In this document: in pieces, positions 13,948 through 40,152 of the stretch
How the letters are laid out: every line of letters starts with the position of its first letter
Position numbering within the stretch: the first letter of the stretch is position 1
Origin: an uncultured Candidatus Bathyarchaeia archaeon
Lineage (GTDB): Archaea > Thermoproteota > Bathyarchaeia > TCS64
Assembly (NCBI GenBank): GCA_964559155.1
Contig: CAZLHA010000004.1
Coordinates: forward strand, 1-40,152
Direction: 5' to 3'
DNA: 40,152 bases
Position numbers and translations under genes: made by a program
The notes under the pieces: model-generated
Told to the model about the DNA's origin: nothing
Seen by the model: the letters and a program-made list of their open reading frames with translations, nothing else
Database searches by the model: none

Positions 13948-14699
13948 TCAAGTTTTTTTCATCTGGATTATATGGAAATATCTGCCTATTATTAGGAACA
14001 CAATAGACCAGACAAAAAGCAACATAATATTAATCTGCCAACCAAAATATGAGAACTCTCCCATCCCTAATCTAAAGAGATCTAGTGTATGGGTTAGCGG
14101 AGAAAGTAATGCCGCGTAGATAGCAATATCAGGCAACTCACTCAACGGAATAAACATACCGCTCACAAACATCAAAGGGATCCTCACAAGGTTAAACGGC
14201 ATCATTATCTCACCTGGACTCTCAGTGGGTATGGAAGCGAATAATATTCCAAGAGATGAGAAAACCAGTGATGATAAAATTATTCCTGAGATAAATGCTC
14301 CTAGGTTAAACAATGATTGACCAGTAATAACTATCCCCAAACTCGCTGATAGAAGAGTAACGAATACGCCAAATATCATAACTCCCATGGCTTTTCCCCA
14401 AAGTACAGATGATAGGCTAATAGGCGCGGAGAGAAATCTATCGAAGGTTCTCATACGCCCCTCCATGGGGATAGATGATGGTCCTATGCTGCTACTGGCC
14501 CAGAATACTGTCTGTGCAGAAAGTACAGGAATAAGCCTCTCCACAGGCATTCCACGACCTACACTGAGCTAAAAAACAAGGCCAACGGGAAGAGTATACC
14601 AAACATTAGACTAGGAGGTCGCAGATAGTAGACCCTCATATCATTTAACGTGATGGCCCAGCTCCTCTTAAATTCATCAAATAATGTTACTTTACTCAT
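13948..14699 (-). pseudogene. ABC-2 type permease, frameshifted by a 1-nt deletion near 14560-14570
   Basis: ATG at 14699 (ATGA overlap with the ATPase stop) reads MSKVTLFDEFKRSWAITLNDMRVYYLRPPSLMFGILFPLALFFSSV*, homologous to the paralog N-terminus; the rest (to 13948) is in another frame; span 752 nt = 3n-1. Confidence 0.8.
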
Positions 14700-15667
14700 C
14701 TTCGACCCTTTTTTCCTTTGATTATCTCCTTCTTCATCTCTTTTCCAGTAAGATCCAAAAACACATCCTCTAAGCTAGCCCCACGTGTGTTCAATGATAA
14801 AATATCTATGCTATTTTCCTCTATTAACTTGCATAATCCTCTCAGAGTTTCTTTCGGGTTGCTTGTGACTAATCGAAGCTTATCTCCCCTCTTCTCGTTA
14901 TCTATGACCCCGGGCAGTTCATCCAATGTTGTTGTATCGCTGTGGTTTTCGAATGATATCTCAATCGATTGACTTCGCTGCATAGCCCATTTCAGTCGCT
15001 CAGGTGTGTCTATTGCCGCTATCTTTCCTCTGTTAATTACTGCGATTCTATCACACATCTGATTTGCTTCTTTCAGATTATGTGTTGTTAGAAACACTGT
15101 TAATCCCTCCTCGTTCAGGCTTCTGATCAGATCTCTTATCCCTCTAACGCTCTTGACATCCAGCCCCGATGTGGGCTCATCAAGATACAATATCTTAGAG
15201 TCATTCACTAAAGCCATGGCTATGCAGACTTTTCGCCTCATACCCCTGCTATAGCCCTCAACTTTCTCATTCTTTCTATCATATAACTCAAATCGGTCAA
15301 GAAGTTCTCTATTCTTTTTATCCCGTTTCTCCTTTGGGATGCCATATAATTTACCGGTGAAATCTAGATTCTGCCAAGCAGTTAACTCCGTATAAATATT
15401 ACTTATATCCGGTACGATTCCCATTAAGGTTTGAGCGGCCACTGATTGTTTCATTATATCATATCCCATTATCTCCGCTGAACCAGAACTCGGCAATGAG
15501 ATCCCTGTTAACATCCTAATAGTGGTTGTTTTTCCTGCTCCGTTTGGCCCTAGAAAACCAAAGATCTCTCCCCGATCCACACTGAAACTAATGTGGTCAA
15601 CTGCGAGAAAGTCTCCGTAATATTTTGTTAATTCTTTTGCCTCAATTGCATAACTCATGATATTCAT
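14696..15667 (-). CDS. ABC exporter ATP-binding protein (DrrA/CcmA-like)
   Basis: Walker A GPNGAGKTT, signature YSRGMRRK, Walker B ILYLDEPT, H-loop TTH; start 15667 (or 15658) right after the regulator stop. Confidence 0.95.
   Translation of the reverse strand: MNIMSYAIEAKELTKYYGDFLAVDHISFSVDRGEIFGFLGPNGAGKTTTIRMLTGISLPSSGSAEIMGYDIMKQSVAAQTLMGIVPDISNIYTELTAWQNLDFTGKLYGIPKEKRDKKNRELLDRFELYDRKNEKVEGYSRGMRRKVCIAMALVNDSKILYLDEPTSGLDVKSVRGIRDLIRSLNEEGLTVFLTTHNLKEANQMCDRIAVINRGKIAAIDTPERLKWAMQRSQSIEISFENHSDTTTLDELPGVIDNEKRGDKLRLVTSNPKETLRGLCKLIEENSIDILSLNTRGASLEDVFLDLTGKEMKKEIIKGKKGRR
15522..15604 (-). repeat. 83-bp perfect inverted repeat, left copy (inside ATPase 1)
   Basis: Reverse complement is base-for-base identical to 16425-16507 (GCAGTTGACCACATT...GGAAAAACAACCAC). 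Confidence 0.95.
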
Positions 15668-15668
15668 T

Positions 15669-15998
15669 TTATTTGAGATCCTCAATCAGGTTGATCTTGA
15701 TCTCCTTTGTCTTCAATCGCCATAGTTTCTCGGGGGCTCCTCCGCCCTCCTCAAGATATCCTGATACCTCGATTATTTCCCCGTTTCTCAACTCTCCAAG
15801 GTGGTAGTAGAGGCTGGATTTTGCTAGTGTCTCACCTCTGTCAACTATTTCTTGGTATATCTCCTTTGTTCCCTTTTCTTCGTGTCCTATGATGGCTATA
15901 ATATCCCATCTAATTGGACAGTGGAGGGCCTTGAAATATTGTTGAAGTTGTTGAATCTTGTTTGTTTTCGGGTTGCAGTGGCCACCATTACAGCACAT
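15669..15998 (-). CDS. ArsR-like winged-HTH regulator with N-terminal Cys/His motif
   Basis: FKALHCPIRWDII...SSLYYHLGELRNGEII; N-terminus MCCNGGHC; ATG at 15998 lies about 27 nt from the TATA box. Confidence 0.85.
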   Translation of the reverse strand: MCCNGGHCNPKTNKIQQLQQYFKALHCPIRWDIIAIIGHEEKGTKEIYQEIVDRGETLAKSSLYYHLGELRNGEIIEVSGYLEEGGGAPEKLWRLKTKEIKINLIEDLK

Positions 15999-15999
15999 G

Positions 16000-16060
16000 A
16001 TACATTGTAATATTATCAAAAAACTTATAAAATTATTGCATGGTATGTAATATGATTGAA
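16000..16060. promoter_or_regulatory. Divergent promoter with a central bidirectional TATA box and symmetric putative operators
   Basis: TTATAAAA at 16025-16032, about 27-29 nt from both ATGs (15998 minus, 16061 plus); flanking imperfect inverted pair ATACATTGTAATA / TATTGCATGGTAT (10/13). Confidence 0.5.
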
Positions 16061-16216
16061 ATGTCTGATCATGAATGCAAAGGCTGCGAACACTCTAATA
16101 ACCTGAAAGGCTGTGCACAACACCACGTTGAAACCGCTAGAAAACTAATCAAGGAAGGAAAACTAGAGGAAGCAGATAAGAACCTCAAAGGCATACAAGA
16201 ACACCTTAAGGAATAA
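16061..16216 (+). CDS. Small Cys/His-rich putative metal-binding protein, 51 aa
   Basis: Hand translation MSDHECKGCEHSNNLKGCAQHHVETARKLIKEGKLEEADKNLKGIQEHLKE; leaderless spacing to the TATA box; T-run after the stop. Confidence 0.7.
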   Translation: MSDHECKGCEHSNNLKGCAQHHVETARKLIKEGKLEEADKNLKGIQEHLKE

Positions 16217-16256
16217 CCGCTTTTTCAACCACTAAATATTTTTATGGCGAACTTTT

Positions 16257-16364
16257 ATGAAAATCAAGGATTTCGAGTTTAGCCTCAGGGAATTCGGGGG
16301 AAGCCTTGGAGACTTCGGTACACTTACCTGTATAATGCCGTTAAGAGAAAGATTGTATCTTTAG
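16257..16364 (+). pseudogene. 5' remnant of a MOT1-family molybdate/sulfate transporter gene
   Basis: MKIKDFEFSLREFGGSLGDFGTL resembles the conserved MOT1 N-terminal motif (E..GSLGD.GT); reading then drifts and stops after 35 codons. Confidence 0.6.
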
Positions 16365-17321
16365 GTGAATAGATTGAGTTCGATACGTGTTAATGACTTA
16401 ACCAAGATTTGGGGTGAGGTCAAAGCAGTTGACCACATTAGTTTCAGTGTGGATCGGGGAGAGATCTTTGGTTTTCTAGGGCCAAACGGAGCAGGAAAAA
16501 CAACCACCATCAAGATGTTGGTGGGTTTAACCAAGCCCACCCGTGGTAGTGCATATGTTGCGGGCTACAATGTCACGGATAGTATCAGGATGGTAAAACA
16601 GCGTATAGGCGTTGTTCCAGAGCGATCAAATCTATACAATGAACTCACTGTAACTGAGAACCTCAGATTCGTATCAAAATTATACCATGTACCCTCTGAG
16701 GAACGAGAGACTAGAATAACGGAACTCCTCGACCTCTTTCAATTAACAGAATACAGGGATAGAGACTTCGCTAAGCTCTCAAAGGGATTAAAAAGGCGAG
16801 TCGTTATCGCCGCAGCCCTGATTCACAATCCTGAAATTATCTTCCTAGACGAACCAACATCCGGTCTCGACATAATGAGCGCTAAGAGATTAAGAGAAAT
16901 AATATCAGACCTAAGTGAACAGGGTGTAACAATATTTCTTACAACACACTATATTGAAGAAGCAGGGGTTCTCTGTGATCGTATCGCCTTACTTGTGAAA
17001 GGTAAAATAGTTGAGATTGATACGCCTGAAGGTTTGAGGAGCATTGTGCAGGATACACCAATCCTCCGCATTAATTATCAAGGAAAACTAGACCAGAGTT
17101 CCCTCAATGAAATACATGGTGAACAAGTCTCCTCCCTAGATGGTGAATTATCAATCCTAACAAAAAACATACACGCGACACTAGAATCCCTGTTCACCAC
17201 AAAACAGGATATAACAATACAGAACATTGAGACTATAAAACCAAAACTTGAGGACGCATTCATACAATTAACAGGGATCTCCCTTGAATCCATGCGTGTC
17301 GAGAAGGAGGGAAAACCATGA
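16365..17321 (+). CDS. ABC exporter ATP-binding protein (DrrA/CcmA-like)
   Basis: GPNGAGKTT, LSKGLKRR, IIFLDEPT, TTH; start GTG 16365 or TTG 16374. Confidence 0.95.
   Translation: MNRLSSIRVNDLTKIWGEVKAVDHISFSVDRGEIFGFLGPNGAGKTTTIKMLVGLTKPTRGSAYVAGYNVTDSIRMVKQRIGVVPERSNLYNELTVTENLRFVSKLYHVPSEERETRITELLDLFQLTEYRDRDFAKLSKGLKRRVVIAAALIHNPEIIFLDEPTSGLDIMSAKRLREIISDLSEQGVTIFLTTHYIEEAGVLCDRIALLVKGKIVEIDTPEGLRSIVQDTPILRINYQGKLDQSSLNEIHGEQVSSLDGELSILTKNIHATLESLFTTKQDITIQNIETIKPKLEDAFIQLTGISLESMRVEKEGKP
16425..16507 (+). repeat. 83-bp perfect inverted repeat, right copy (inside ATPase 2)
   Basis: Identical to the reverse complement of 15522-15604; flanks diverge immediately on both sides. Confidence 0.95.
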
Positions 17322-18046
17322 ACCTATTCGAGGAGCTAGAAGGAATCATGGCCATACTTGAGAAAGACCTACGGGCATACTACTTCAAGCCACCAAACAT
17401 CAGTTGGGGAATACTCTTCCCAGTAGTATTAGCTCTTAGCTTCACCCTTAGAAACCCCGAGGGGCTCACTGATCTTGCGCCAGGATTGATTGCAATGGCT
17501 GCTCTTTTCGGGACCACCAGCATGGAGGCTATAGTTATTACTTTTGAGAAACGGGTTGGCGCTCTTGAACGGCTTCAACTCGCGCCACTGAACTCCGCCT
17601 CGATTATAGTGGGAAAGCTACTAGGGGGTACTGTTTTCGGGTTAATTATATCATCCGTGATGACTGGTATAACCATAGTATTTCTAGGTGCAGAGATCTC
17701 CAACCCCTTCCTGTTTATAGTGGTGCTCCTTTTGACTAATCTTGTGCATTCATCATTGGGGGCATTAGTTGCTGTCTCCGTTAAGGAGGTTTTTGAGGCG
17801 CAGACTTTGAGTAATTACTTCAGATTCCCCATGATTTTCCTCTGCGGCGTATTCTTACCCTTGGATGAGATGCCATTTATTCTGGGGATTATCGGGAGGT
17901 TTCTGCCTTTAACTTACTCCGTTGAGGTTCTTCGTGGGTTAATGCTAGAGAAAGGAATTATTATCCTTGATGTAATTATACTGATAGGGTTTAGCTTAAT
18001 TTTACCATACCTTTCTATAATTCAATTTAGGAGAAATCAAGAATAG
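17318..18046 (+). CDS. ABC-2 type permease
   Basis: About 6 TM helices; EKRVGALERLQLAP, PMIFLCGVFLP, PLTYSVE; ATGA overlap with the ATPase. Confidence 0.93.
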   Translation: MNLFEELEGIMAILEKDLRAYYFKPPNISWGILFPVVLALSFTLRNPEGLTDLAPGLIAMAALFGTTSMEAIVITFEKRVGALERLQLAPLNSASIIVGKLLGGTVFGLIISSVMTGITIVFLGAEISNPFLFIVVLLLTNLVHSSLGALVAVSVKEVFEAQTLSNYFRFPMIFLCGVFLPLDEMPFILGIIGRFLPLTYSVEVLRGLMLEKGIIILDVIILIGFSLILPYLSIIQFRRNQE

Positions 18047-18140: not shown

Positions 18141-19709
18141 TTGAATATTACACCCGAAGAGGTCCATAAAGAAGCATGGAGCAAAGGAGTAGAAGCCTCA
18201 AAACAGAACAAATATGATAAATACGCTATCTACGCGACGAGAATACTTGCAGTACGACACCCAGAAACATATCTAAAAGCAGATACTCGATTCATAAACC
18301 ATATCACTACTAATCGCGGATACAGCAACAGCTACCGGGTAAAAGATGTACACAGCAAAGAATTCTTAACTGATATGCAGTTCCGAAAGTATCCTTCATT
18401 CAGTTTTGATCAAGTAGATTTCAATGAATTAGATACCGTGAAATTCAGTGAACTCTATCCGGAGGATTATCCCGTATTATCTTATCTGGATAGGCGTATG
18501 CTTCCCGTTGCCACCACTTTGAAGACTAGAAACAACAAGTTAACTGAGCTTGAAAAAGTGGCGTTACTATACCAGAAACATCGCGTTCAGAGACAGGGAT
18601 ATGATGATTTATACATAATTCACTGTGATAATGAGCAAACCTACCTCTCAAATAACGAGAAAATCTTATCCTCCTCCAGTGAAAAAGTTGACAGCATTGA
18701 CGGGGATCCGGTACTGATCTTCAATCAGGATAATGTCTGGTATCCCCTGATGCGGAGAGATGACTCAGCCCAACACCCAAAACTGCTTCGCATAGTCCAA
18801 AAATATGCCTTGGATAACGTAACACCCAAACTGACCGATTTTGAGGAAAAAATGATAAACATCCTCCAGGAGACCACGAAACTTGATAATAAGCAACAAT
18901 TGTTCATGGCAGAGATATGCAGCCTCCGAAGCACAGGACGACAAACATGCACCACTCCCTTATCCGAATGGTTCCCCTTACACAGTTTATGGGATACCGC
19001 ACTACCCGCATCAAAAGCAAGAGCATGGCAATATTATGGATACTTGGAACAGATACTCATAAGATCAAACAAATTGAGCCCCATAGCCGCCTACCTAGCT
19101 GCCCTAAGTCTAAACTCTGAGGGGTACGATAAACTGGTCACCATAAACAAGGAATGGGTAGGAAGAGTCGCGTTACCAAACTATGGATACGTCTGGGGGC
19201 ACCTCTGGGACGAGTGCCTAGTAGAATACAGTATAGATGAGTCCTTCAGGACAAGCGCAGGTCACTGCATGGTACAGGCAATGATAGACAGCGCGGTACT
19301 GGAGATGGTTGACATAGACAACTATATGATGGAGGGCGAGGTACCCGGCAGTCACCACTATGTATGGATACCTGAATACGAAGCCACTTTTGATAATAAC
19401 CGCCTCAAGATATCAATGAACAACGTGATACTGGACTGGCCGCGGGGAAACAAGGTGCTGGCTAGGTTCCACCATGATGGGAAATTCTGTTCCCCCATAG
19501 CCGGGGGAGAGTACAGCGGAAGCTTCAGCCCCGAGGAGTGTGTCGCTGAGATAGATAAACTAGCCTCCACATATGGAAACACGATCCCCATCTACGCTAA
19601 CGGCGAACACGAGACCAAACCCACTGTAAAAAACCGTAACGATCGCGCAATAACAGAGGATTATCATAAACTGCTGGATGAGGAATGGGAGAATCTACAG
19701 CTTCCATAA
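18141..19709 (+). CDS. Hypothetical protein with C-terminal transglutaminase-like (Cys-His-Asp) domain
   Basis: 522-aa ORF with AGGAG SD; GHCMVQA...GSHHYVW...FDN spacing resembles the TGc triad. Confidence 0.75.
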   Translation: MNITPEEVHKEAWSKGVEASKQNKYDKYAIYATRILAVRHPETYLKADTRFINHITTNRGYSNSYRVKDVHSKEFLTDMQFRKYPSFSFDQVDFNELDTVKFSELYPEDYPVLSYLDRRMLPVATTLKTRNNKLTELEKVALLYQKHRVQRQGYDDLYIIHCDNEQTYLSNNEKILSSSSEKVDSIDGDPVLIFNQDNVWYPLMRRDDSAQHPKLLRIVQKYALDNVTPKLTDFEEKMINILQETTKLDNKQQLFMAEICSLRSTGRQTCTTPLSEWFPLHSLWDTALPASKARAWQYYGYLEQILIRSNKLSPIAAYLAALSLNSEGYDKLVTINKEWVGRVALPNYGYVWGHLWDECLVEYSIDESFRTSAGHCMVQAMIDSAVLEMVDIDNYMMEGEVPGSHHYVWIPEYEATFDNNRLKISMNNVILDWPRGNKVLARFHHDGKFCSPIAGGEYSGSFSPEECVAEIDKLASTYGNTIPIYANGEHETKPTVKNRNDRAITEDYHKLLDEEWENLQLP

Positions 19710-29423: not shown

Positions 29424-29717
29424 TTAATTTCGGGTATAGGTACCACCGAAATTCCTCAACACGGTAAACCTTAATGCCTCTCCTCCATAACCTTCAACAA
29501 GATCACAGACCGCTAATGCACCTTGAATGGGCCCATAATATACACTATACTGAAGCATTTCCCCGCCCTTTGCCCCGATTATCTCTTTCAGGTTTGTCCA
29601 GAATCTATTGGTAGCCTCTTTTTCCCTGAAATCATAGACAACGAGGTTTTGGTACTCTGATTCTAGGTTTTCGTCAATACTGTCGAGTATTTTCTTGGCT
29701 CTGCTTCTTCTTCCCAC
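29424..29717 (-). CDS. Stand-alone Cas2/VapD-like ferredoxin-fold protein
   Basis: LVVYDF...RFWTNL...GGEMLQYSVY matches the Cas2 signatures (hhYD; G..hQ.SV); GTG start; no cas1 or array in the window. Confidence 0.72.
   Translation of the reverse strand: MGRRSRAKKILDSIDENLESEYQNLVVYDFREKEATNRFWTNLKEIIGAKGGEMLQYSVYYGPIQGALAVCDLVEGYGGEALRFTVLRNFGGTYTRN
29428..29452 (+). repeat. 25-bp inverted repeat, left copy (3' end of the Cas2-like gene)
   Basis: TTTCGGGTATAGGTACCACCGAAAT; 22/25 to the reverse complement of 29721-29745; perfect 17-bp core at 29436-29452. Confidence 0.9.
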
Positions 29718-29720
29718 ATC

Positions 29721-29745
29721 ATTTCGGTGGTACCTATGTACGAAA
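29721..29745 (-). repeat. 25-bp inverted repeat, right copy (3 nt upstream of the Cas2-like start codon)
   Basis: ATTTCGGTGGTACCTATGTACGAAA; perfect 17-bp core at 29721-29737. Confidence 0.9.
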
Positions 29746-37485: not shown

Positions 37486-40152
37486 TTATCTTATTTTCCC
37501 GTTATCTACCTTCTCTAACCTGATCTTCTCTGCATCGGTTTTCAGCTGCTTGCCTTGGAGATAAGCTTTACCCCCCCGGGCTTCCAATGTATACTTTAGG
37601 AACTCCTCAAATGAGATCTTCTCGGATTTGTACTCCTCTACTCCATCAACATACACCTGGTCTCCAGGTTTGCTCTTCTCAGGGTTCAGTATTCCAACGT
37701 TCTTACCATCGTCTCCAGCTAGTAGCATTCCTTCACTTAGCTCGCCTCTTAGCTTCGCTGGCTCAAGGTTAGTAACTACTACTAAGTTCTTACCTAGCAG
37801 ATCATTCGGATCAGGATAGTGTGGTTTCAGTCCAGCGCATAGCTGTCTTTCTTCGTCACCGAGATCAATCTTCAACAAGTATAGCTTATCCGCGTTAGGA
37901 TGATCCTTTATCTCGGTTACCTTGGCTACTTTGAGGTTTAGCGCTGAGACATCGATGGGATTAATAAGCCTGTATTCTCCACCACAGTACTCCGTGATGA
38001 GTTCACACATCTCGACCAACGCATCTTCCAAGTATAGACCCGTGGTTTTCTTGTTACCCTGCACGTAGAGTAAGAGATTCTCTGTATCAAAACCGATCTT
38101 GGTGTGTTGCCCCTGCTTTACATCAAGCCAGCATAGGACCTTCTCCTCGTCCATCATAGCGAATTTACCGGGCTGAAGCTTCTCCTGCTCCGTCTCACCC
38201 AATGGTACATACAGTTCGTTACCTCTTGTTACCCCTAGTTCTAGGTCTCCTTTGATTTTATCCAAGTCGTGGAGTCCAGCGCTTACGAGTTTCTCTGCTG
38301 ACACTAGGTTATAGCTGTCGACAGCCGTGTTAATGGTTGGGAAGTTTCCCTTTTCTTTAACCAGTTTAACCAGATATACCGCAGAGTTCTCTACATCAAC
38401 CTTGGATTTCTTATAGATCTTGTTGTAAGCCTCAACAATGGGGTTATGTTCCAAGTCAATATCCTTGACAATGTCTGCTACCTGTTTTTTGAGCTTCTCC
38501 AAATCACTGTGAGATTTCTCAATATCGACGCCCTCAATGATGGCTAGTTTAACCTCTACACCAAGCTTGGCTATCCGTGGGTCCATCTCAAAGTTGATCT
38601 CCCTCTTCTCCGGCTCTGGTTCAGGGGTCTTGATCTCGATTGGGTCAATCTTTCTCAGTATTATCTCGGCCTCGCCAAGTTGATGATCTTCTACTCTTTT
38701 ATCAATGTCATCCCATGTGAGGTTCTCCAAGTTCATCTGCTTCTCGATCTTCTCAGCGAAAAGGGGCATGATAGGTTTAATCATTATAGCTATGTTTTTC
38801 ACGATGTATACACAGTCGGTTAATAGTCTCTGCGTTTTCTCTGGGTCTGTTTTACGATGCTCCCATGGGGCATTATCCTGGAAATACTTGTTACCTGTGC
38901 TACTTATTTCCAATATCCTGTTTACAGCTTCTCTGAATTCGTAGTTATCATAAGCCTCATAGACCTTCATGGATTTCTCGTGGATATCCTCAAGTAGTTT
39001 CTCGTTATCGCTCTTCGTTGTCTTGCCGTCAAAGTATTTCCCTGTAAAACTCATAACCCTATAGACGAGGTTAGCTAGGTTTGACACCAGTTCGTTGTTG
39101 ATCCTGTTCTCAAGATTCTTCAGATCCAGATCTATGTCTGTCATGGTGTGACTCAGGTTAGCCGCGTAGAAGAACCTCAACAATTCTGGGTCAAGATACT
39201 TCTGGAACTCCTCGGCTGTTAGGAATGTACCCCTGCTCTTGCTCATCTTCTCCCCGTTAACGGTCAGGAAACCATGTACAACTATATTGTCAGGTACATG
39301 GAACCCTGCTCCGTGGAGAACCGCGGGCCAGAAAAGTAGATGAAAATAGATTATATCCTTACCTATGAAGTGAATTATCTCATGTTCGTCTGTCTGCCAT
39401 ATGTCATCAGCGCTGAATTCCTTATCCTTGCAGTAATTAGCTGTAGAGGCTATGTAGCCAATAGGTGCGTCTAACCATACATAGAAGTATTTATCCTCCT
39501 CGCCAGGTATTTTGAAGCCAAAATATGGGCCATCTCTGCTAATACACCAGTCCTCTAGGCCATCGTTTACCCATGTTAATACCTGATTCCTTATCTCCGG
39601 CTGAAGCCTCTTGTTATTATTCAACCAGTCTCTAAGCCAGTCACTGAACTCGCTCAGTTTAAAGAAGTAGTGACGGCTCTTTCTCCTTATCGGCGTGGAG
39701 CCGCATATGCTACAGTACGGGTTTAGCAAGTCAATGGTACTGTAAGCAGTGTTACATTTCTCACAGACATCCCCATACTGGTCCTGAGCTCCACAATTCG
39801 GGCACATACCTTTAACGAATCTATCCGGGAGGTATCTTACACAGTTCTCACAGTAGGTTAACTCGATCTCCTTGGTGTATATGTGTCCTTTCTCTTTGAG
39901 ACGATTGAAGATCAACTCCGTGTAATGCTTGTTCTCTGGGCTATTGGTGCTGTAATAACTATCAAAGTCCACAAGATAGTTATCATAATCCCTTTTGTGC
40001 TCCTTCCACCAGCGATCGATAAAATCCTCAGGTGAGACGCCTTCCTTGGCGGCGTTAATCTCGATGGGGGTACCATGAGTATCCTCCGCGCCACAATAAA
40101 TAGCGTCTCTACCGCTCATCTTGAGGAATCTAACATAGATGTCTGTCTGAAT
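37486..40152 (-). CDS. metG: Methionine--tRNA ligase (5' end outside the window) with an inserted B3/B4 domain and a C-terminal OB/Trbp111-like domain
   Basis: Frame open to the window edge (IQTDIYVRFLKMSGRD); DTHGTPI, four CxxC knuckles, YVWLDAPIGY, IGKDI, KMSKS; C-terminal HPNADKL...NLEPAKLRGELSEGMLLA. Confidence 0.97.
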   Translation of the reverse strand: MQTDIYVRFLKMSGRDAIYCGAEDTHGTPIEINAAKEGVSPEDFIDRWWKEHKRDYDNYLVDFDSYYSTNSPENKHYTELIFNRLKEKGHIYTKEIELTYCENCVRYLPDRFVKGMCPNCGAQDQYGDVCEKCNTAYSTIDLLNPYCSICGSTPIRRKSRHYFFKLSEFSDWLRDWLNNNKRLQPEIRNQVLTWVNDGLEDWCISRDGPYFGFKIPGEEDKYFYVWLDAPIGYIASTANYCKDKEFSADDIWQTDEHEIIHFIGKDIIYFHLLFWPAVLHGAGFHVPDNIVVHGFLTVNGEKMSKSRGTFLTAEEFQKYLDPELLRFFYAANLSHTMTDIDLDLKNLENRINNELVSNLANLVYRVMSFTGKYFDGKTTKSDNEKLLEDIHEKSMKVYEAYDNYEFREAVNRILEISSTGNKYFQDNAPWEHRKTDPEKTQRLLTDCVYIVKNIAIMIKPIMPLFAEKIEKQMNLENLTWDDIDKRVEDHQLGEAEIILRKIDPIEIKTPEPEPEKREINFEMDPRIAKLGVEVKLAIIEGVDIEKSHSDLEKLKKQVADIVKDIDLEHNPIVEAYNKIYKKSKVDVENSAVYLVKLVKEKGNFPTINTAVDSYNLVSAEKLVSAGLHDLDKIKGDLELGVTRGNELYVPLGETEQEKLQPGKFAMMDEEKVLCWLDVKQGQHTKIGFDTENLLLYVQGNKKTTGLYLEDALVEMCELITEYCGGEYRLINPIDVSALNLKVAKVTEIKDHPNADKLYLLKIDLGDEERQLCAGLKPHYPDPNDLLGKNLVVVTNLEPAKLRGELSEGMLLAGDDGKNVGILNPEKSKPGDQVYVDGVEEYKSEKISFEEFLKYTLEARGGKAYLQGKQLKTDAEKIRLEKVDNGKIR

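Follow-up and report, generated by a model that had tools for sequence, protein, structure and literature searches.

A mosaic 83-bp inverted identity between two divergent ABC ATPase genes of a Bathyarchaeia archaeon, probably a product of recurrent gene conversion

The window, a 40,152 nucleotide stretch of DNA from an uncultured Candidatus Bathyarchaeia archaeon (contig CAZLHA010000004.1), contains two ABC-2 type exporter operons transcribed away from each other. The reverse strand encodes a winged-helix regulator (15669..16001; ArsR/HTH_20-like, 110 aa) with a Cys/His-rich N-terminus and weak HTH matches only, followed by the ABC-2 type ATPase A (14696..15667; 323 aa, PF00005 and DrrA1-3_C) and the ABC-2 permease A (13948..14699). 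Permease A has a frameshift, caused by the loss of 1 nt near 14566, and is intact (250 aa) in seven other members of its cluster. The lost base lies in an AA pair beside an A6 run and not within it, and slipped-strand phase variation of this gene was rejected on that ground. The forward strand encodes a small Cys/His protein (16061..16216; 51 aa) that is conserved beside the regulator and matches no family above the cut-off, a remnant of the MFS molybdate transporter MOT1 (16257..16372), the ABC-2 type ATPase B (16374..17321; 315 aa) and an intact ABC-2 permease B (17318..18046; 242 aa). In the MOT1 remnant the first 23 codons are fused to the last 15 or so, with about 1 kb deleted near 16325. 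An AT-rich intergenic region of 59 bp (16002..16060), conserved in relatives, separates the divergent genes and likely holds both promoters. The winged-helix gene (on weak HTH matches only), the 51-aa Cys/His protein, the MOT1 remnant and the broken permease had been proposed in an earlier note on this DNA, and all four identifications stand.

Both operons are ordinary members of the ABC-2 (DrrA/NodI-like) exporter operons (PF00005, PF13732, PF01061), and they differ from the usual ones in the frameshift of permease A and in the deletion of the MOT1 gene in this strain. ATPases A and B fall into two separate subfamilies and are old paralogs. Each half of the locus also occurs alone in relatives, as regulator-A-permease in some cases and as the divergent small protein-MOT1-B-permease in others. 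Many relatives have the regulator conserved ahead of an A-type ATPase, and the regulator-to-A order, present in dozens of them, is the ancestral one. Among 32 genomes of the genus the complete divergent A/B pair was seen only in the window and in G006, a relative that is 96% identical (background divergence 3.65%) and has the pair in the same orientation. Three further contigs, with lengths of 7,761, 20,661 and 35,249, also seem to contain both genes.

The longest exact run shared by the two ATPase genes is 83 nt. As the earlier note had described, two genes with many differences have these 83 bases in common in inverted orientation and in the same codon phase, at 15522-15604 (-) in ATPase A and 16425-16507 (+) in ATPase B. 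The arms encode the peptide AVDHISFSVDRGEIFGFLGPNGAGKTT(T), codons A22-T49 of ATPase A counted from the ATG at 15667. Outside the tract the genes are 47% identical in nucleotides and have the same residue at 110 of 287 aligned codons. The codon itself is identical at 34 of the 109 degenerate same-residue codons (31%), so that 27 identical codons would arise by chance with a probability of about 2e-14 with the peptide held fixed. Identity within the tract, synonymous sites included, is thus far above the background (83/83 nt versus 47%). A Walker-A control of 448 A-type x B-type pairs, drawn from 49 fetched regions, gave a longest exact run of at most 17 nt in 444; the four exceptions (83, 53, 41 and 38 nt) are all pairings that involve the window or G006. 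These two results rule out chance or amino-acid constraint alone: the inverted identity is genuine and far outside what chance would give. It is also the longest internal exact repeat of at least 30 nt with flanks less than 75% identical in this genome, in which 108 internal repeats were found in total. The abrupt divergence that had been claimed for both sides holds at the 5' edge; at the 3' end, by contrast, divergence tapers, with 97% identity over 95 nt. The creatininase paralogs provide the contrast that had been drawn with them, since this inverted pair has a longest exact run of 12 nt. The N-terminal peptide in which they agree covers no more than about 11 residues.

Comparison with G006 reveals that the tract is a mosaic of two donors. 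The A and B genes of G006 have only a 38-bp core in common (16440..16477 (+), corresponding to 15552-15589 in A), which sequence comparison marks as the oldest homogenised part. The earlier note had suggested a comparison of orientation and repeat identity with related genomes; orientation is the same in G006, and the identity there is 38 bp versus 83 bp. An exact search for the core in metagenome contigs gave 0 matches, a result that carries no weight as evidence since closely similar records may be missing from the searched set. On the 5' side of the core the B arm has A-derived sites at 16433..16439 (+), where four diagnostic bases give DHI in place of the DNI of the G006 B protein (four A-type sites within 7 nt, P ~6e-5 at 3.65% background divergence). 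On the 3' side the A arm has B-derived sites at 15529..15551 (-). Here six differences from G006 A fall within 23 nt (P ~1e-4), four of the six are identical to G006 B, and the Walker A motif changes from GKS to GKT. Both residues are characteristic of the subfamilies: His occupies the DHI site in 15/19 A-family and 0/22 B-family homologs, and the Walker A site is Ser in 19/19 A homologs and Thr in 22/22 B homologs. GKT occurs in one of nine close A alleles, that of the window strain alone (GKS in the other 8/8), and DHI in four of five close B alleles. At these 4 + 4 sites, judged against G006, a donor can be named, and within the tract each ATPase gene resembles its paralog more than its ortholog.

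Tract states also vary by strain (38 bp, DHI only, 83 bp), as expected of recurrent events, and a dimorphism in both arms points the same way (see below). The donor history can be only partly read, since two sites in the 3' part of the tract differ from both G006 genes and a third agrees with G006 A. The MOT1 deletion is common to the window and to G006 with its 38-bp tract, whereas the X5 population has an intact MOT1 yet shares the window's 5' tract boundary. The steps are therefore not strictly nested, and exchange between strains is needed. These comparisons rest on the DNA of two genomes only, the remaining alleles being compared as proteins.

Public k=31 contigs, the form in which all 21 runs listed are available and one that does not phase across 83 bp, were examined from four runs (X1-X3 and X5), of which X1-X3 belong to one study. 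The X2 and X3 contigs end at 15551 and 16478, as expected for a true repeat, and list no alternative letters within the arms; the contigs of X1, a run that may itself be a source of the DNA, end at the same two positions. The X2 repeat piece has a depth of 30.3 compared with 12-14 for its flanks. The X3 contigs end additionally at 15575 and 16454 and fit a single haplotype in which both arms have the same letter as the window. The X2 pattern consists of contigs of 1441, 53 (half depth), 864 and 60 (double depth). Graph simulation recovered it in two of six cases, and in both of these position 16447 (+), which is 15582 in the A arm, was dimorphic in both arms. From the breakpoints and the simulation we infer a second letter at this site in the X2 population, and probably in X1 too. 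The window's letter accounts for 15.7 of 30.3 in X2, and sequencing error is an unlikely source since the other letter has about half the depth. One site that varies in both arms suggests that exchange between A and B is probably still under way.

We consider it likely that the 83-bp identity is a gene-conversion tract between old inverted paralogs, produced by recurrent ectopic copying at the conserved Walker A region. The earlier note had offered recent gene conversion as the alternative to inversion, and the two-donor mosaic, the strain-dependent tract length and the apparent dimorphism in both arms all favour it. Homologous-recombination repair would have transferred short patches repeatedly, from A to B as well as from B to A, between ATPase genes that are inverted relative to each other with 820 bp between them; the genome encodes RadA-family genes and NucS. 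Proximity and the peptide that leads into and spans Walker A, which hardly varies, may have provided the seed of identity. Each event would extend the seed and ease the next, from 38 to about 53 to 83 bp, and the tract probably ends at residues where the A and B subfamilies differ. In A the change from GKS to GKT would have come last and been tolerated, perhaps helped by the broken permease A. Some events may resolve as crossovers that flip the 820 bp as a rare, unselected by-product. The locus is likely an ordinary by-product of repair and not a purpose-built switch.

The closest known parallel is tufA/tufB of Salmonella enterica, inverted paralogs whose concerted evolution is attributed to gene conversion by homologous recombination, a process that also yields inversions as a by-product (PMC5485169, PMC8262849). 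Inversion is reported in 5/59 selected recombinants of inverted Salmonella cassettes and in up to a quarter for tuf (PMC8262849). Both systems have inverted paralogs homogenised in tracts, intermediates able to flip the intervening DNA, and, as described for tuf, large regions of difference that block conversion. The tuf genes are reported to be separated by 762 kb and to be nearly identical along 1185 nt, whereas the archaeal pair is 47% identical outside one 83-bp two-donor mosaic island and 820 bp apart. Hughes 2000 is said to be a further reference on tufA/tufB. Homologous recombination between archaeal paralogs is described for sod1/sod2 of Haloferax volcanii (PMC6063281), where near-identical sequence with unique flanks likewise serves as a substrate for intrachromosomal recombination. 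The sod genes are reported to be identical over about 600 bp, to lie in direct orientation and to rearrange observably. Here, by contrast, the identity is 83 bp and inverted, and no rearrangement was seen. Literature searches on gene conversion of archaeal paralogs or ABC transporters and on Bathyarchaeia gene conversion yielded no paper on this locus among the matches listed. On this reading the locus is a neat natural instance of gene conversion in short tracts and in both directions, between paralogs that are 47% identical; the host is an uncultured archaeon, and its strains show several stages of the process.

The geometry proposed in the earlier note is correct, in that a crossover between the arms would flip 820 bp and keep both ATPases in frame. 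It is nevertheless unlikely that RadA-type crossovers, with no dedicated recombinase, flip the segment back and forth often enough to maintain the two orientations side by side, the mosaic being a scar left by one flip and its reversal. The tract is A-type at its 5' end and B-type at its 3' end, exactly the make-up of a crossover junction, and inversion, then re-inversion with conversion, accounts for it equally well. The chimeric genes would both be in frame, conversion between inverted repeats is reported to come with inversions in Salmonella (PMC8262849), and paralog crossovers are known in Haloferax (PMC6063281). The dimorphism in both arms is compatible with reciprocal haplotypes too, which recovered the X2 pattern in the graph simulation as well as the both-arm variant did. 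Against this, the 5' flank of A is joined to the A body in 9/9 close A alleles and that of B to the B body in 5/5 (consensus sequences), a non-reciprocal outcome. No chimeric ATPase occurs among these 14, so the alternative orientation is not fixed in any, nor among the 120 A matches listed and 64 B matches. In one locus, L109, the regulator immediately precedes an ATPase and a permease of B-like type; this locus was rejected as a fixed flipped form because the N-terminus of its ATPase belongs to another subfamily and is no A/B chimera. G006 is oriented like the window, the X3 contigs fit one haplotype, and the reciprocal state requires a crossover within the first 22 bp and not in the other 60. 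The contig of the window crosses both 83-bp arms in an assembly apparently made with k=55, which suggests one dominant orientation.

We regard as similarly improbable a reading in which the conversion island, lengthening itself, is now long enough to flip without a recombinase. Orientations would then co-exist, the regulator would lead either the broken A or the intact B operon, and a switch would be in the course of being born from repair. The both-arm dimorphic site would then mark a reciprocal exchange. Were both orientations present in reads, the locus would be a rare chance to watch an archaeal invertible element emerge with no invertase involved.

A programmed phase-variation switch, in which inversion of the regulator and promoters by a site-specific invertase would decide which exporter is co-transcribed with the regulator, is not supported and is very improbable. 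The idea has some appeal in that perfect in-frame inverted repeats flank the promoter and regulator. Known invertons, including partial-intergenic types and those that exchange gene ends, such as pneumococcal hsdS (PMC4948785) and Ureaplasma UU172 (PMC3047005), likewise have intragenic inverted repeats whose flip would exchange 5' ends and promoters in frame. Chromosomal invertons are described as little studied in archaea, with 12 putative cases from PhaVa (PMC10028968), and searches on Bathyarchaeota phase variation and inversion gave none mentioning Bathyarchaeota among the matches listed. Unlike invertase-driven invertons, the locus has no invertase nearby and no second orientation was seen. 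The repeat length and borders drift by strain instead of forming a fixed conserved site, being 38 bp in G006 versus 83 bp and missing from the A/B genes of other genus members. A scan of 34 ORFs of the 40-kb window found no recombinase family. In the genome as a whole, which is 88% complete, the one tyrosine-recombinase match (PF00589) is on contig C35 and not on the contig of the window, and there is no resolvase match (PF00239); the C35 recombinase may act in trans at the arms. The restriction of the full pair, among the 32 genus genomes, to the window and G006 also speaks against a switch. Either state leaves both exporters downstream of a promoter, and the regulator already stands divergent beside the B operon in relatives that lack A, so a flip would probably change little. 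The phase-variable exporter switch of the earlier note is thus not supported, given the non-chimeric alleles, the ancestral regulator-to-A order, the orientation of G006 and the lack of a recombinase match in the window. As a caution, perfect in-frame inverted repeats in assemblies do not, alone, make switches.

It is most improbable that the assembler made a single consensus out of a pair of similar Walker-A regions: the genome is fragmented (245 contigs with 55-bp contig overlaps), the source population is multi-strain and a difference of one base at 16447 could have been collapsed, but independent k=31 contigs link each unique flank to 22-30 nt of arm, with the repeat at double depth, models of a single haplotype with differing arms fail to recover the X2 pattern, and the A-type His in B is present in three further assemblies. 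The k=31 contigs and the graph simulation rule out wholesale collapse, and at most one base is in doubt. That base, at 16447/15582, sits at the foot of a small hairpin with a 5-bp stem, and an error tied to the hairpin, or a hot spot of template switching there, may have produced the dimorphism in each arm separately.

The ABC-2 ATPase genes A (14696-15667, minus strand) and B (16374-17321, plus strand) are divergently oriented and each is followed by an ABC-2 permease gene. As the earlier note had claimed, they share 83 consecutive identical bases, inverted and in the same codon register (15522-15604 in A and 16425-16507 in B). Elsewhere the two genes are 47% identical in nucleotides and use the same codon at 34 of 109 degenerate same-residue positions, which puts the chance of 27 identical codons at ~2e-14. 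The longest shared run was at most 17 consecutive bases in 444 of 448 A-type by B-type Walker-A pairs from the loci compared (four duplicate loci excluded); the other four, with longer runs, are all window/G006 pairings, G006 being a close relative with both genes. The contrast drawn with the inverted creatininase paralogs of the window also holds: these are 61% identical in amino acids with differing codons, and their longest common run is 12 bases.

G006 has the same orientation as the window (96% identity over 4.1 kb), and its A and B have just a 38-bp core in common. Relative to G006, the B arm of the window carries 4 A-type bases in 7 nt at its 5' end (P ~6e-5), and the A arm has 6 differences in 23 nt at its 3' end, of which 4 are B-type (P ~1e-4; background divergence 3.65% in both cases). 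At two of the 3' sites the base is that of neither G006 gene, and at one it is that of G006 A. At the variable position of Walker A, 19/19 A homologs have Ser and 22/22 B homologs have Thr, and the His of 'DHI' occurs in 15/19 and 0/22, respectively; these family residues give the direction of transfer. GKT is unique to the window among 9 close A alleles (95-100% identical) and recurs in 14 of 111 more distant A matches. DHI is present in 4 of 5 close B alleles, and G006 retains DNI. Since alleles differ between strains, at least three tract states are recognized (38 bp, about 53 bp and 83 bp), the second from proteins and the breakpoints of sequencing run X5 at 15575 and 16454. X5 has the 5' border of the window together with an additional ~1 kb at 16325, the first bases of which continue the MOT1 frame, and G006 combines the MOT1 deletion with the short core. 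The order of states is thus not strictly nested, which implies exchange between strains as well.

Recurrent gene conversion between A and B by homologous recombination probably made the tract. Conversion would have been seeded by the nearly unvarying peptide that precedes and spans Walker A, the 820-bp spacing would favour it, and the perfect match would grow with each event. The latest step into A may be GKS to GKT, in a strain with a broken permease A. The features of ectopic conversion that were tested were found. The tract resembles the case of Salmonella tufA/tufB, whose inverted copies undergo conversion that sometimes brings an inversion with it. In Salmonella, inversions went along with conversion in 5/59 cases for cassettes and in as many as a quarter for tuf (PMC8262849), and large differences block tuf conversion tracts (PMC5485169). 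Short intramolecular tracts are presented as a general trait of concerted evolution (PMC11276520), and crossovers between paralogs occur in Haloferax (PMC6063281).

The 820-bp interval contains what had been proposed from the sequence: a 110-aa winged-helix protein (HTH_20/HTH_12 matches weak, below cut-off), a conserved 59-bp AT-rich gap, a 51-aa Cys/His protein and a MOT1 molybdate-transporter remnant (16257-16372; first 23 and last ~15 codons). Whole MOT1 is found in the relative G002 (378 aa, PF16983) and on contig C9 of the window's genome (19829-20947), there with its own small Cys/His gene and then apparently only an ATPase gene fragment. The deletion is shared by the window and G006, with junctions 1 nt apart, and MOT1 appears intact in the X5 population. 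The usual order in 75 loci of relatives is regulator-ATPase-permease in one direction. The small protein, a MOT1-sized gap, B and permease stand divergent from the regulator, without A, in G002, G005 (twice), G017 and several metagenome loci. The full pair was seen in the window's genome and G006 only, among 32 genus genomes of which many are fragmented, so that not found does not mean absent. Because relatives carry the two half-arrangements separately, the window orientation is taken as ancestral. The unannotated pair of Cys/His-rich winged-helix regulator and 51-aa protein (15669-16216) shows wide conservation, in Bathyarchaeia and Hadarchaeota and at one Heimdallarchaeota locus, adjoins ABC-2 exporters or MOT1, and is possibly a metal- or redox-sensing module. 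Another inverted ABC-2 operon pair, convergent, lies beside the same regulator family in two loci of relatives (L077:3260-7555 and L078), the 5' end of its second ATPase being beyond the DNA examined.

The 5'-A/3'-B make-up is also the expected residue of a flip of the interval and a flip back with conversion, and frequent recombinase-free flipping is an unlikely explanation. A flip would put ~20 N-terminal residues of one gene on the body of the other. No such chimera was present among 120 A matches listed of 995 (8000 candidates scored) or 64 B matches, which include the 9 close A and 5 close B alleles; as consensus sequences they would hide a minority orientation, and phasing across 83 bp is beyond k=31 contigs. 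A switch would seem to bring little advantage, since both exporters would stay behind a promoter even when flipped and the regulator already adjoins the B operon in relatives without A; a switch arising without an invertase is improbable. Of the two readings in the earlier note, conversion is supported by the mosaic tract, and the phase-variable switch is not supported, with no chimera among the close alleles and no recombinase gene found in the window. A programmed invertase switch is very unlikely: none of the 34 window ORFs scanned matched a recombinase family, the genome (88% complete) has one PF00589 match (contig C35) and none to PF00239, and two of the inverton features tested (PMC10028968) were lacking. 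The genome encodes NucS and RadA-family genes. Three of the latter are strong full-length matches (C126:6-704, C95:2156-2869 and C29:16309-17013; frames of 322, 355 and 334 aa), either true paralogs or bin contamination (4%).

Collapse of differing copies needed consideration because the metagenome assembly (2.45 Mb, 245 contigs, with the window making up the whole of contig C4; close homologs labelled Candidatus Bathyarchaeota/Bathyarchaeia by their sources) appears to be k=55, many contig overlaps being 55 bp, and such an artefact is scarcely credible given the X2 and X3 breakpoints and doubled X2 depth. Four of 21 listed runs were compared as contigs: X1, possibly the source of the window DNA, X2 and X3, these three being from a single study, and X5. 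Breaks fall at 15551 and 16478 in X2 and X3, with two more in X3 at 15575 and 16454; a simulated k=31 graph of a true 83-bp repeat breaks in the same way. No alternative letters were listed within the arms. Depth in X2 is 30.3 on the repeat piece and 12-14 in the flanks. The repeat is real, judged from breaks and depth. The frameshift in permease A is likewise genuine, being the major form in X1 (depth 17.2 vs 5.1 for the minority intact allele) and the sole form in X2 and X3 contigs. Permease A (13948-14699) has a 1-nt deletion and several private substitutions relative to proteins of 4 relatives (among them A to S, R to G, E to D and G to V), consistent with decay.

X2 has extra breaks that define an 864-bp piece (15583-16446) ending 22 nt into each arm, with further pieces of 53 bp (depth 15.7) and 60 bp (depth 30.3). 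This pattern was reproduced in 2 of 6 simulated cases, both with two letters at 16447 (15582 in the A arm) in both arms: either a strain whose two arms each carry the other letter, or reciprocal haplotypes. Identity-band counts agree (9 X2 pieces at 99+ and 3 at 95-99; 11 and 4 in X1), one X1 piece also terminates at 16446, and X3 is consistent with the window's letter in each arm. Judged from the breakpoints, the most economical explanation is that a new mutation was copied from one arm to the other within the population, so that exchange is probably still going on; by the tallies the other letter may be A or C. The site sits at the base of a small hairpin, so a hot spot might instead be acting on each arm.

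Elsewhere in the window, a 522-aa ORF (18141-19709) matches no Pfam family and lacks a paralog in the genome, and a 25-nt inverted repeat (29428-29452 and 29721-29745; 88%, 268 nt apart) lies upstream of the cysteinyl-tRNA synthetase gene. Methionyl-tRNA synthetase (37486-40119) has an extra B3/4 domain preceding the tRNA-binding domain. CRISPR-like arrays with 32-40-nt direct repeats, unlike spacers and a ~66-74-nt period occur on other contigs of the genome (C237:1-686 and C3:39555-39725).
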